NCBI RefSeq assembly: GCF_016903815.1 | Contig: NZ_CP069974.1 | Reading direction: 5' to 3' (one strand) | Length of the DNA: 64,000 nucleotides | Origin: Escherichia coli | Lineage (GTDB): Bacteria > Pseudomonadota > Gammaproteobacteria > Enterobacterales > Enterobacteriaceae | In this document: in pieces, positions 24,001 through 30,000 of the stretch | Numbering within the stretch: position 1 is the stretch's first letter | Layout of the letters: each line of letters starts with the position of its first letter | Program-made: the position numbers

Positions 24001-27000
24001 GATGTAATCAACCCCACCAGGAACAGTTCTGCCAGTGTCAGCAGGTTCTGATACTGGCTGTGCGCGGCGACGAACAACAACGACGTTATCAGCGCCCCCA
24101 GCCACATCGTCCAGCAGTACCGTGAACGGAAGACGTTCAGCATAATCCCCCGGAACAGCGTTTCCTCATTCAACGGGGCAAGGATAAAGATGGTCAGCAA
24201 CGTCAGGATCACGTCAGGTATGGACTTATCGGCAAAAAGTTTCGTCATAAATGGCTCAGCAGGCAGAGCCAGCGCCTTACCGAGCAGAAATACACCGACA
24301 TACACCACGGCCATCGCACCGACCAGCCACGGTACGCCAACGTTGCGCAGCTGACCAACGACCGGTAGCGGAGCTATCCAACGGCGGTATACCAGGAAAA
24401 CACACAGCAGGTACATCAGAACAGTACCATGACTGAAGAACAAATAGTTTTTTCCTAATCCATAAAGCAGAACGGCCTGCTCCATGACAAATCTGGCTCC
24501 CCAACTAATGCCCCATGCAGCCAGCATAATCAGCATAAACTGCAGATATTGATTACGTGTTTGAATCATTGCATCGCCTGTAAATTTTTAACTTGTCCTA
24601 TTTTTGTCATTACCACGTATATACACATGTATAACAATTCAGATATCGTTACCAGGATATGCCGCATCAGCGGCATGGAAGGCGGCACTCTGTTGTTTCA
24701 TATGATACAGGAGTAAAACCGCCGAAGCCCGGCGTAAGCCGGTACTGATTGATAGATTTCACCTTACCCATCCCCAGCCCTGCCAGACCATACCCGCTTT
24801 CAGCCATGAGAGAGCTTCTGTGCGCGGTCGGAGTGGTCCCGACGAGGGTTTACCCGAAGTCGGGGCGTATCTCCGCGTTAGCGGGCCGTGAGGGCCGCTT
24901 ACGAGCGTGTACTGAGAACTTCCAGCGAGAAGACTGACAGCGATGAAGATGTAGTTACAACATTCATAATTAAAAGCGACTCTGTTCCGGCCCTTTGGGC
25001 CGGGGCGGGGCCGCTTTTCAGTTATGAGGGAGGGGCTTTGTGGTTTCGGTTCTGCGCTGGACCGGGGTTTTTCTGGAGGTTGTTTTTGTGTGTTGTAACT
25101 AAAGTGGCTCCGGTTGGGGCCCGCCGTTTACGGTGGGAGGTGCATATCTGTCTGTCCACAGGACAAGCAGTGAATAGGTTTTCTTTTTAAATGAATGTAA
25201 TTAAGTAGTTTAAAGGAGATATAAACAGGTGTTTAAAAGATACATTGCACCCTGTAGGGCTGACGGCTGGCGCTTTATGACATTAACGATTGTAACCTTA
25301 TGGGGAAGTCCCTTGCAGTTTAATGTGGATAAGCAAAATTACCCGTCTGTGAGGCGTGTTTTGTATCAAAAACAAGGGGGACCGGATGCACCTGAAGGTG
25401 GATGATGAGGTTGTTTTTTTGTATGTGGTGCTGATTTTTTGTGCACTGGCGGGCTTCAGGCGTGCGAATGCCTCCGGCGCGTGCCGAATTATTCAGAGGA
25501 GGTCACTTTCAGGGGGAAGCTGTGGCCAGGCGGCTGTAATTGCGGTTACGTGACAGAATCATGCGCTCCTTCACACGACGCTCCACTTCGCGTTTTACCG
25601 CCTCACGATTGGCAGTGAAGCGCCCTTCCGAGATTTCACGCGTCAGCTGTCGTTTCACCAGGGTGACGATATCCTGACGTTTCCTGTTCGCATCACGACG
25701 CGCACGGGCACGCTTTATTCCCCGGGACTTAAGCTCTGTTTGGTAACTGCGGAAACGCTCACGCACAAAACGCCAGGCTTTCGCTATCAGTTCATCCATA
25801 CCCAGGGTATCCAGCCCCTGCTTTTTGCGCTGTTTGTTTTCCCATACCACACGGCTGCGGCGCGCAGCTGCCACTGCATCCTCAGACACATCAAGGGCGG
25901 CAAACAGCGCCAGTGTGAACGTGATATCGGTCGGAATGTAGCACCCGATAAGCGGGTCATATTCCGTCTGGTAAGTAATCAGTCCCAGCTCTGACAGGAA
26001 CGTCAGGGCCCGGGTGGCCCGGGTGATGGAGAGTTTTCCTGCACCGGACTCTGTCGCCAGTCCGCACTCAATGGCCAGCGTGGTGATGGAACACTGGACG
26101 CGGTTGGCCAGCGGGTCATAATGGAAACACAGCCCCTGCAGCAGCGCATCAATAGCCCGTCGACGCAGCACCGGTGGCATGCGTCGACGCAGACCACGCG
26201 AACGGGCATGCGCCACATGAATAGCGAAATCAAAACGGGAGCTGAAGCCCACCGCTTTTTCCATCAGTTTTTCGCAGAACTTCAACGTTCCGGCACCTTC
26301 ACGGGGTGTGAACACCGGATTCGGGTTCTTTACCTGGCGGTAATACGTTTGGTGAAGATCAGTCACACCATCCTGCACTTATGTTGCACAGAAGGAGTGA
26401 GCACAGAAAGAAGTCTTGAACTTTTCCGGTCATATAACTATACTCCCCGCATAGAGCAACAGCTTCTATGCAGTTTCTTGTTAGCCCCGGTAATCTTCTC
26501 TTAGTCGCCAAACCTGGTGAAGATTATCGGGGTTTTTGCTTTTCTGGCTCCTGTAGATCCACATCAGAACCAGTTCCCTGCCACCTTACGGCGTGGCCAG
26601 CTGCGTATTTTCATGAAAGGAGATCACTCAATAACTTCCATCGAGATCGGGTAATAACATTTGAACAGATCGCTGAATAACATCGATGGAGATCACTTTT
26701 GACTCATTTTGTTATTCAGTGATCTCCATCAATGTTATTGGAACTTCACAGGTGTGTTGATCTGTATCTTTTGCCATTCCGGTAAAGGATACCTATGCCA
26801 ACAGTTCCAATTTCTATGAGAAAACTTAAAGAAATTCTTAGGCTTAAATACGGTGTTGGACTCAGCCATCGACAAATTGGTCGTAGTCTTGCAATCTCCC
26901 CTTCCGTTGTATCCAGATATGCTAATCGGGCGGCTCAACTTGGCATAAAGCAGTGGCCCTTACCTACAGGATGGGATGATACAAAACTAAAACATGCGTT

Positions 27001-30000
27001 CCTTCAGACCCAGGTTAAGATGAAGAAGCACTCTCTGCCTGACTGGGCTACAGTACACCGGGAACTGCGTAATAAATGCGTGACGCTGCAGCTACTCTGG
27101 GAAGAATACTGTGAGCGTAATCCAGGCGGTTTTTACAGCTATAACCATTACTGCCGGATGTACCGTGAATGGCTCAAAACCACTTCACCATCAATGCGTC
27201 AGGTACATAAAGCTGGCGAAAAACTTTTCGTTGATTACTGTGGACCTACCGTTGGCGTTACCGACCCTGAGACCGGAGAAATAAGAACTGCTCAGGTCAT
27301 CGTAGCTGTTCTCGGGGCATCAAGTTACACATGGGCAGAGGCCACCTGGTCTCAGCAGCTTGAAGACTGGGTGATGAGTCATGTTCGCTGCTTCCAGTGG
27401 TTGGGTGGCGTTCCTGAACTTGTTGTTCCGGACAATCTGAAAAGCGCCACATCCAGGGCATGTAAGTATGATCCTGACGTTAACCCTACCTACCAGCAGA
27501 TGCTTGAGCATTATAATGTCGCAGTTTTGCCTGCGCGGCCACGTAAACCGAAAGATAAAGCCAAAGCTGAAGTTGGCGTTCAGGTTGTTGAACGCTGGAT
27601 CATGGCCCGAATCAGGCATGAGATCTTCTACAGCCTTGCATCGCTTAATCAGCGCATTCGGGAGTTGCTGGAAAGACTGAATAACAAAATAATGCAGAAG
27701 TTGGGTTATTCACGTGCAGAACTCTTCATCCAGCTTGATAAACCCGCACTGAAGCCTCTTCCTGAAGCCAGTTACAGTTACACCCTGGTGAAGAAAGTCA
27801 GAGTTCATGCCGATTACCACGTGGAAATCGACAAACATTACTACTCGGTTCCATGTTCGCTGTTAGGCCAGCAACTGGAAGCATGGATCTCCGGAGAACT
27901 GGTAAGACTCTTCAATCAGGGGCAGGAGGTTGCTGTGCACCCGCGCAAGCGTACTTATGGCTACAGTACCCGCAACGAGCACATGCCTGAAGCTCATCGA
28001 CAGCATGCCACCTGGACGCCAGAGCGTCTTCTGGAATGGGCGGGGCACATAGGCAGTGAAACTCATAGTTATGTGCTTCATATACTGAACTCTCGTCCAC
28101 ATCCGGAACAAAGCTATCGCTTCTGCCTTGGACTCCTGAACCTTCATAAAAAATACAGTAAAGCCAGACTTAATGCAGCATGTGCAAGAGCTCTGGAAAC
28201 AAAGGTATGGCGTCTGTCAGGTATTAAATCGATCCTGGAAAAAGGTCTGGATAAACAACCTGTTCAGGATCCAAAACCAGATCTGTTATCCACGATGGAA
28301 CACGAAAACGTACGCGGCAGTGAGTATTACCACTGATACGGGATCCAATGATGAATCATCTTTACGAACAACTGACCGCACTTAAACTCACCGGCTTCCG
28401 TGATGCGCTTAAAAAGCAACTTGCTCAACCGGGCACATACCAGGAGCTGGGCTTCGAAGAACGCCTGTCATTACTGACAGCAGAAGAACTAACCTGCCGT
28501 GAAAACAGGAAGGCAGAGCGTCTGATCAAACATGCACGGTTCAGACTTAATGCTGAGTTATCAAAGCTGGATTATCGTAACAATAGAGGGCTGGACAGGG
28601 CCCTCATCCGTTCACTCAGTCAGGGAAACTGGTTAACCCTGAAACAAAATATTTTACTGACCGGGGCCACCGGCAGCGGTAAAACGTTCCTGGCATGTGC
28701 ACTTGGTCATAATGCCTGCCGACAGGGATACAAGGTCTACTATTATCGCCTTAAAGCGCTGATGGAACAGTGCTATCAGGGGCATGCTGATGGAAGATAC
28801 AGCAAACTTTTGACCAGGCTGAATAATAGCGATCTGCTGCTTCTGGATGACTGGGGGCTGGAACCTCTCTCATCAGAACAGCGTAGCGACCTGCTGGAAA
28901 TAGTGGATCTGATGTACCAACGAGGCTCAATCATCGTAGTGAGCCAGTTGCCGGTGGAAAACTGGTACAAAATGATCGGAGACTCCACACATGCGGATGC
29001 CATCCTAGATCGACTGGTTCATGGCAGTATCAAGATCGAACTTAAAGGAGAATCAATGCGGAAAATACAATCTCCGTTGACCGAAGGAGATCAGTGAAGG
29101 TAATTTAAAAACGGTTCTGTGAAAGTGACACGAACCGATCTCCATCGATGTTACTCACCGATCTCCTTCACGGTAATACGCAGCCAGCCACAAAATTCCT
29201 TAAACGATCAGTAATCTAGCACTAATCTTCTGAACACTCAGAATGTAAGCCCATCATCACATGCATCGTTTTTGCGCTTCACTTTTTATCAGTGCGGTCA
29301 GAACTTCAGCCTGGGTCAGGCCATCTTCATTACACATTTGCATGAGCATGGCCTTATACTTTGGTTCGAGAAATACTTTTACTTCCTTGAACGAAGCTCT
29401 TTTACGGGCCACTGATAATCTTTGTTTCTCTGCATCAGAAAGCGGATTCCCCTTTCTGTATGCTCGTTTTGCGCCAGATGAGGAAGTCACTGTATTTTCT
29501 GTCTGCGACATCTCGCCTCCTCAATACTTAAACAGGGATCGTTTCGCAGAGAATACTACAGTTTTTTGAAATCAGCGACTTGAAAGTTGTGACGATGATC
29601 TGTGTTGGCGCACAAATCATGTCTGATTACGACCGTTTAATGTAATTTTGATAATAAAATGACTGAAAAGTAGGAAATGCTTTAACCAGGGTACCGGCCC
29701 CGGGCGGGACCGGCAGTTTCTAGCATTTCGGGTGTCTGCCCCTGAAATACCTCACACTTCCGGAAAGCGGGGACTTCCGTCCCCGCCCGGCAGCTTACTT
29801 CCGTGCTTCAGGCCAGAGTTACCTGCACCACTGTATTTCCCCTGTGAATATTCAGTTCACATAACTGTTCCCTGAATATCAGTGAAAAACACAACACCGT
29901 GGCGCACACGGCAAGCAACCCGATAAGGGTATATTTCGTCATAAACTTTGACATCTTTGCAAAGAAGAGGCTACAATCAGTAGTGCTAAAGTGCATCATG

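Follow-up and report, generated by a model that had tools for sequence, protein, structure and literature searches.

We analyzed a 64,000-nucleotide stretch of Escherichia coli plasmid DNA (contig NZ_CP069974.1 of assembly GCF_016903815.1; hereafter the window), which contains the basic replicon of an IncFII (RepFIIA) plasmid. A complete copy of the insertion sequence (IS) ISEc12 was found in the leader of the repA mRNA of this replicon. The insertion is a simple ISEc12 transposition, with a 6-bp target duplication, into an R100-like replicon taken to be FII-1. As a robust consequence, tap and repA1 are uncoupled from the promoters PcopB and PrepA and from the repressor CopB, with the other parts of the basic replicon intact. 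We consider it somewhat probable that this leaves the FII replicon crippled or silent, and that other replicons sustain the plasmid.

Both ends of the element could be defined exactly. The termini read TGCGTATT... at the left and ...AATACGCA at the right, following the 5'-TG...CA-3' pattern of the IS21 family. The terminal inverted repeats are imperfect and composed of multiple repeats, with arms of 53 nt, and GATCTCC(A/T)TC motifs recur near both ends. The genes istA and istB follow each other on one strand, 11 bp apart, which is the two-gene arrangement of IS21-family elements. A direct duplication of 6 bp (GCCAGC) brackets the element, within the range of 4-8 bp for this family. Copies that are 100% identical carry the Prokaryotic Genome Annotation Pipeline (PGAP) label "IS21-like element ISEc12 family", and the name ISEc12 used here rests on this annotation. 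An earlier note on this DNA had proposed an IS21-family element inside the RepFIIA control region, which is borne out by the istA-istB pair, its Pfam domains and the exact ends. The interval that it gave for the element (26455-29256) is the gap between the neighbouring genes and overlaps copA; the true element spans 26602-29182.

When ISEc12 and one copy of GCCAGC were excised in silico, the remaining 554 nt were 100% identical to many uninterrupted plasmids. The flanks were also aligned to R100, where they abut exactly, indicating a precise empty site and placing the inferred PrepA on the copB side. Junctions identical to those of the window (100% identity) occur in many independent complete plasmid assemblies. 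An assembly artefact, which the earlier note had considered, is ruled out because the same junctions recur so often. We also noticed a hairpin newly created at the junction by the duplicated target together with the left inverted repeat (IRL), with a T-rich run after it (GCGTGGCCAGCTGCGT ATTTTCATGA; 26591-26606, + strand). On the copA strand, this hairpin lies 50 nt past the terminator of CopA, and it is probably incidental.

The replicon that received the element was recognized as IncFII from its genes. RepA1 belongs to the IncFII_repA family and its gene overlaps tap, and copA lies opposite the repA leader, so that CopT is the complement of copA on the - strand. CopB of the window is 98% identical to R100-type CopB. 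The region of the DnaA box TTATCCACA downstream of repA1 we take to be oriR, from prior knowledge of oriR1. The current order on the - strand is PcopB, copB, PrepA, about 20 nt of leader, ISEc12, the remainder of the leader, CopT/copA, tap, repA1, and oriR. The orientation of istAB is opposite to that of copB, tap and repA1. According to the R1/R100 model, repA is read from the constitutive PcopB and from the stronger, CopB-repressed PrepA, and CopA targets the CopT leader (PMC5717011, PMC4344636). A continuous transcription unit from PcopB and PrepA to tap-repA1, as expected of an IncFII replicon, is no longer present in the window, where 2,581 bp of oppositely oriented IS lie in between. The coordinates thus agree with the earlier statements that the element parts copB from copA-tap-repA1, with copB, tap and repA1 on the same strand, and that read-through from the copB promoter is interrupted.

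PrepA was placed by comparing ten FII alleles (alignment A1), whose CopB proteins differ by up to about 50%, together with R100 and one Enterobacter replicon. Sites pointing toward repA1 were ranked with a simple sigma-70 position weight matrix (PWM). The sequence just 3' of the copB stop codon is variable among the ten alleles, yet a TAGATT hexamer is invariant, with TGn before it. The corresponding -35 hexamer is TTGnnn in seven of the other alleles, TTTACT in two, and CTGAGT in the window; the spacer is 17 bp, or 16 bp in the two alleles with TTTACT. In every one of the ten alleles, this (T)TGnnn-17-TGnTAGATT site was the top PWM site toward repA1, with scores of 9.7-11.5 in nine alleles and 7.8 in the window allele. 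The counterpart in R100 is TTGAGT-17-TGcTAGATT, and the one in the distant replicon of Enterobacter sp. Ag1 is TTGATC-17-TGcTAAATT. The Enterobacter locus came from a 15-base pattern scan of contigs, in which the other matches were almost all due to chance. Among good promoters directed at repA1, this is the sole one shared by all 11 FII alleles compared. We infer from this conservation that PrepA lies directly past the copB stop codon, on the copB side of ISEc12, with a transcription start near 29205-29208. The CopB target presumably remains there with it.

Further features of this region deserve mention. The -35 hexamer of the FII-1 allele is one T short of that of R100 (CTGAGT vs TTGAGT), and the PWM score drops from about 10.6 to 7.8. 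The same change makes an overlapping dyad, TTCTGA-GTGT-TCAGAA, perfect. This dyad is a candidate CopB operator, a dyad of such size being weakly above chance. From the PrepA -10 into the early repA leader, about 95 nt are nearly invariant in the ten FII alleles (29219-29183 plus 26601-26542, - strand; columns about 120-215 of alignment A1). The block comprises GTGGC-TG-GCCAC-N8-GTGGC and two predicted hairpins, and it is largely kept in the Enterobacter replicon. Unlike this block, the neighbouring 3' ends of copB and the CopA loops vary greatly.

Relative to the inferred PrepA start, ISEc12 enters the repA leader at about +20 to +26, in the middle of the invariant leader block, and 60 bp upstream of the copA gene end along the path of the mRNA. 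The repA1 side retains both predicted leader hairpins, CopT, tap and repA1, and PrepA is now directed into the right inverted repeat (IRR) end of ISEc12. The earlier note had suggested a possible shift in the position of the CopB operator with respect to the repA1 promoter. This is not the best description, because operator and promoter both appear to stay on the copB side, and it is tap-repA1 that has been cut off.

A consensus scan of the IRL-proximal part of the IS and of the junction identified no promoter toward repA1. With the PWM, the best site at the IRL end scored 7.4, compared with a median best score of 9.2 for shuffled sequences, so that no outward promoter above chance was detected there. 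This best site, TCAACA-17-TAACAT (26760-26732), has a score near the 7.8 of the window's own PrepA. The antisense strand of ISEc12 contains six terminator-like sites (a hairpin plus a T run), and its ATG-initiated open reading frames (ORFs) are all short (99 aa or less). Some stretches of the antisense RNA are moderately C-rich and G-poor; these terminator and Rho-site scans are suggestive at most.

The arrangement suggests the following course of events. With CopB control of repA1 lost, the loop that derepresses repA1 at low copy number or during establishment would be gone. To reach tap-repA1, transcripts from PcopB and PrepA would need to run through 2.6 kb of antisense IS RNA that is not translated. 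Because of this crossing, and because the IS offers no good outward promoter, repA1 is probably expressed at a very low level, which would leave FII crippled or silent. The plasmid would then be maintained by RepFIA and RepFIB, located outside the window. Expression of copA and copB would continue, and FII incompatibility toward related plasmids would persist.

No RepFIA (RepE) or RepFIB initiator was detected by tblastn in the window, consistent with the earlier suggestion that any other replicon lies outside it. All carriers of the exact insertion site that were checked (nine of nine) were typed as FIA+FIB+FII. The changed copy number or reliance on another replicon proposed in the earlier note is plausible, and these typings are in line with it. 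The MOB-suite labels are noisy, with the classical FII replicons of R100, pSS_046, pSB4816 and pMS20673B typed as "IncFIA" only. Since the replicon labels in PLSDB alone are unreliable, the smallest carrier (64 kb) was read gene by gene, and repE, sopAB, ccdAB and the RepFIB initiator were found annotated. For the ST410 carriers, the published replicon formula is FII-1:FIA-1:FIB-49 (PMC10786849).

Several observations weigh against a crippled or silent FII replicon. The need for RepA is small, and PcopB is itself a weak promoter; low read-through may suffice, as may a weak cryptic promoter inside the IS, for which TCAACA-17-TAACAT is a candidate. Decay of tap, repA1 and ori was sought in insertion carriers and none was seen, though the lineage is young. 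The position of PrepA was derived from conservation. Finally, TraDIS (sequencing of transposon insertion sites) of the related plasmid pEC958 identified the FII replicon (copA, tap, repA1, repA4, ori) as required and the FIA replication genes as dispensable, and copB was not among the required genes (PMC4398462). FIA alone may therefore be unable to take over, and if FII is silent, then, given pEC958, FIB would have to do the work.

It is quite possible, although we lean toward doubting it, that FII is still the working replicon, with tap-repA1 fed by read-through or by a weak IRL-proximal promoter. Replication would then be controlled by CopA alone, at an altered copy number and with the CopB rescue loop missing. 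A working FII replicon would be in keeping with the dependence of pEC958 on FII, with the great success of the carrier lineages, with the weak candidate promoter at 26760-26732, and with the leader hairpins, CopT, tap, repA1 and ori, which are intact and identical among carriers. Its supply of repA1 transcripts is harder to account for, because no promoter toward repA1 exceeds chance and read-through would have to cross the whole untranslated antisense RNA with its hairpin-plus-T sites and moderately C-rich stretches. Moreover, each of the carriers checked was typed with both FIA and FIB.

A different model of PrepA takes TAAGGT (26582-26577, - strand) as the -10 hexamer and GTGGC-TG-GCCAC as the operator. 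Under this model, which we regard as improbable, ISEc12 would split promoter and operator, and a -10 hexamer without its -35 would be left beside the end of the IS. The insertion indeed falls at the centre of the 12-bp near-palindrome, which would sit at about -28 to -17, and Riise and Molin are said to have reported in 1986 that CopB binds in the -35 region. Elsewhere, CopB is described as binding or repressing the repA promoter, with no finer position given (PMC12779154). The palindrome belongs to the block that is invariant across alleles, but the predicted DNA-reading part of CopB differs by 40-50% between them. The -35 position is occupied by GAATTT, AATTTT or GGAATT, with 0-1 matches out of 6 and PWM scores of -1 to -4, a poor fit to a PrepA described as "strong" (PMC4344636). 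TAAGGT was demoted to a minor rival because it has no -35 and a negative PWM score, and because a promoter with a conserved extended -10 and -35 lies upstream. Whichever PrepA model holds, repA1 is deprived of its native transcription signals and of CopB control.

It is highly improbable that the insertion is functionally neutral, lying outside the minimal control elements, or an artefact: the carriers are common and stable, as neutrality would have it, but the site separates both promoters from CopT and falls inside the FII typing amplicon, and nothing speaks for an artefact, which the recurrence of the junctions, duplication included, refutes.

Both primer sites used for FII typing (CTGATCGTTTAAGGAATTTT, CACACCATCCTGCACTTA) are present, one on either side of ISEc12. 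The amplicon across the insertion measures 2,848 bp, compared with 261 bp in the uninterrupted replicon. Standard PCR with the FII primers on carriers is expected to give a 2.85-kb product instead of one of about 260 bp, or to fail, and in-silico FII typing meets a split allele. The allele name FII-1 was taken from PMC10786849, where it is used for plasmids that are identical to the window over the junction.

The insertion is widespread. Of 5,426 complete E. coli genomes, 154 carry ISEc12 within or next to the FII control region described here, as do 111 PLSDB plasmids. These counts are based on long queries that require both the IS and its flank. Queries of 100 nt across the junction had been swamped by half-matches and were replaced, and a count of 613 matching records is no carrier count, the IS making up 86% of that query. 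Among the best 60 of the 111 PLSDB matches, about 41 have the exact site of the window; these plasmids are 64-152 kb in size and come from human, animal, food and water sources. Carriers of the exact site include CP034956, CP123014, CP123019, CP123031 and CP123037, each matching the junction query at 100% identity. PMC10786849 assigns these five records to the FII-1:FIA-1:FIB-49 plasmid of ST410 B4/B5-H24RxC clones and mentions an ISEc12 with target duplication in the plasmid backbone. The insertion as such is thus already known, from many database copies and from at least one paper that mentions ISEc12 in these plasmids.

One carrier (NZ_CP031137, pGMI17-003_3) has six clustered substitutions in tap and the start of repA1 (equivalent to 26310-26398) and a different Tap. 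The pattern resembles recombination with a different FII allele 3' of the IS rather than decay.

ISEc12 and the related IS100 were also found at other positions in the same FII allele, as three additional independent ISEc12 insertions and one of IS100, mostly inside copB (Table 1). With PrepA still joined to repA1, the copB insertions are expected to behave as naturally occurring copB-null alleles of the copy-up kind. The search for insertion sites joined pieces on one strand and reached roughly 1.2 kb upstream from the junction. The shared orientation of all ISEc12 sites was dropped as evidence, because such a one-strand search would miss copies in the opposite orientation. For the clustering of the sites, selection, target preference and ascertainment are all possible explanations. 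It is a rather doubtful proposition that the recurrent insertions in copB and the leader are adaptive, with three-replicon F plasmids being freed from CopB or having FII silenced. If it is true, copy number, establishment after transfer and incompatibility would be altered, and CopA and CopB would still act on rivals without the plasmid depending on FII. Such a change could be one factor in the success of ST410 F1:A1:B49 and similar lineages.

Plasmids with the insertion rank with the most frequent multidrug-resistance F plasmids found in clinical E. coli, and the ST410 blaNDM-5 lineage carries it too. If FII is disconnected in them, the label "F1" cannot tell the driving replicon, the copy number or the incompatibility of a plasmid, and anti-plasmid CopA/CopB cassettes aimed at FII control may not cure the carriers. 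No report of an effect of the insertion on replication was found in the literature searched. The event is of a familiar kind and of modest interest in itself.

Table 1. Coordinates of ISEc12, of the interrupted FII replicon and of further insertions in the same FII allele. Positions are those of the window; "equivalent" marks positions transferred from other plasmids.
Feature	Position	Strand	Evidence and remarks
ISEc12 (IS21 family), complete	26602-29182 (2,581 bp)	+	Ends, inverted repeats, precise empty site
IRL region with internal GATCTCC-type repeats	26602-26669	+	Faces copA/tap/repA1
IRR region	29116-29182	+	Faces PrepA/copB
istA, transposase, 513 aa	26795-28336	+	PF00665 (rve) and PF22483 (Mu-transposase C-terminal domain)
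istB, helper ATPase, 249-aa ORF	28348-29097	+	PF01695 (IstB_IS21), 227.5 bits; start as annotated in relatives is 28351
Target-site duplication, copy on repA1 side	26596-26601		GCCAGC on +, GCTGGC on -
Target-site duplication, copy on copB side	29183-29188		GCCAGC
copB/repA2, repressor, 84 aa, intact	29257-29511	-	PF10723 (RepB-RCR_reg), 113 bits
Inferred PrepA	29213-29241	-	-35 CTGAGT 29241-29236, 17-bp spacer with TGn, -10 TAGATT 29218-29213; conservation and PWM
Dyad TTCTGA-GTGT-TCAGAA, candidate CopB operator	29243-29228	-	Overlaps PrepA -35
Severed first ~20 nt of repA mRNA leader, start approximate	29189-29208	-	Inferred from -10 position and junction
Remainder of repA leader, two predicted hairpins	26542-26595	-	Joined to CopT/tap/repA1
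copA, antisense RNA gene, intact, full length	26451-26541	+	Rfam RF00042, 91.1 bits (gathering score 60)
copA promoter-like site TTGAAC-17-TATACT	26416-26444	+	Consensus scan
tap, leader peptide, intact	26359-26433	-	Annotation of identical sequence, mapped by offset
repA1, initiator, 285 aa as annotated, intact	25509-26366	-	PF02387 (IncFII_repA); mechanical ORF begins at 26378
DnaA box TTATCCACA, 3' of repA1	25324-25332	-	Taken as oriR region
FII typing forward primer site	29192-29211	-	3 bp from duplication, 9 bp from IS end
FII typing reverse primer site	26364-26381	+	
ISEc12 inside copB, pC7 type (NZ_CP059280)	29465-29469 equivalent		5-bp duplication CGTTT; about 15 among best 60 matches
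ISEc12 inside copB, pUS29_1 type (CP048861)	29405-29409 equivalent		5-bp duplication CGGGC
IS100 (IS21 family) inside copB, p1-S1-IND-02-A (NZ_CP145647)	29399-29403 equivalent		
ISEc12 upstream of copB, pMG101_B (NZ_CP070963)	29686-29690 equivalent		5-bp duplication CCAGG; control region intact

Outside the replicon, the window contains five repeats of 820 bp (5222-6041, 10482-11302, 21154-21973, 34990-35810, 41364-42183) that match the IS26 of pEcIMT16316 at 99.6-100%. These IS26-like copies bound the resistance segments and interrupt the tra region. Group II intron domains (Rfam RF02012 at 57866-58015 and RF00029 at 60088-60164; 57866-60164 overall) surround a 555-aa ORF (58416-60083), which is annotated as the reverse transcriptase/maturase ltrA in the closest plasmid. 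Two identical matches to RNA-OUT (RF00240, 98.8 bits) at 36651-36720 and 37723-37792 share one strand, spaced by about 1.07 kb, and hint at IS10-type ends arranged in an unusual way. Other Rfam matches were AS-pc02, an antisense RNA first described on pHK01 (30731-30916), AS-traI (34882-34958), and a class 1 integron attI/aminoglycoside leader (20352-20433).

Among known systems, the IncFII replicons of R100/NR1 and R1 have the same genes in the same order and near-identical sequence, and R100 aligns base for base with the IS flanks and with the interval from copB to tap. In contrast to R100, the leader in the window is broken 9 bp past the FII-FW primer site, and tap-repA1 is no longer behind PcopB and PrepA. 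In the F plasmid, RepFIC is interrupted by Tn1000 in the initiator gene, and other replicons carry on. There, too, a secondary FII-type replicon is disabled, whereas here the genes are intact and the promoter connection alone has been cut. The ST410 FII-1:FIA-1:FIB-49 plasmids (pCTXM15_020026, CP034956; pE22P1, CP123037; and others) have the same ISEc12 at the same site, but the window plasmid carries a larger portion of the tra region (with genes such as traI and traD) and differs in its resistance region. The available part of PMC10786849 contains no statement placing ISEc12 in the FII control region, and no consequences are discussed in it.

Loss of copB in R1 raises the copy number of mini-R1 to about 20-25 (PMC4344636). 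The copB deletion mutants of mini-R1 (pKN1562 derivatives) have lost CopB control of repA, as has the window replicon, but they keep a derepressed PrepA on repA. A rise in copy number by this route is not expected here, because PrepA is detached from repA1. The ST131 plasmid pEC958 (F2:A1:B-) has a close FII replicon together with FIA; its FII is uninterrupted, and it has neither ISEc12 nor FIB. It provides the sole functional data on the working replicon in this plasmid family.

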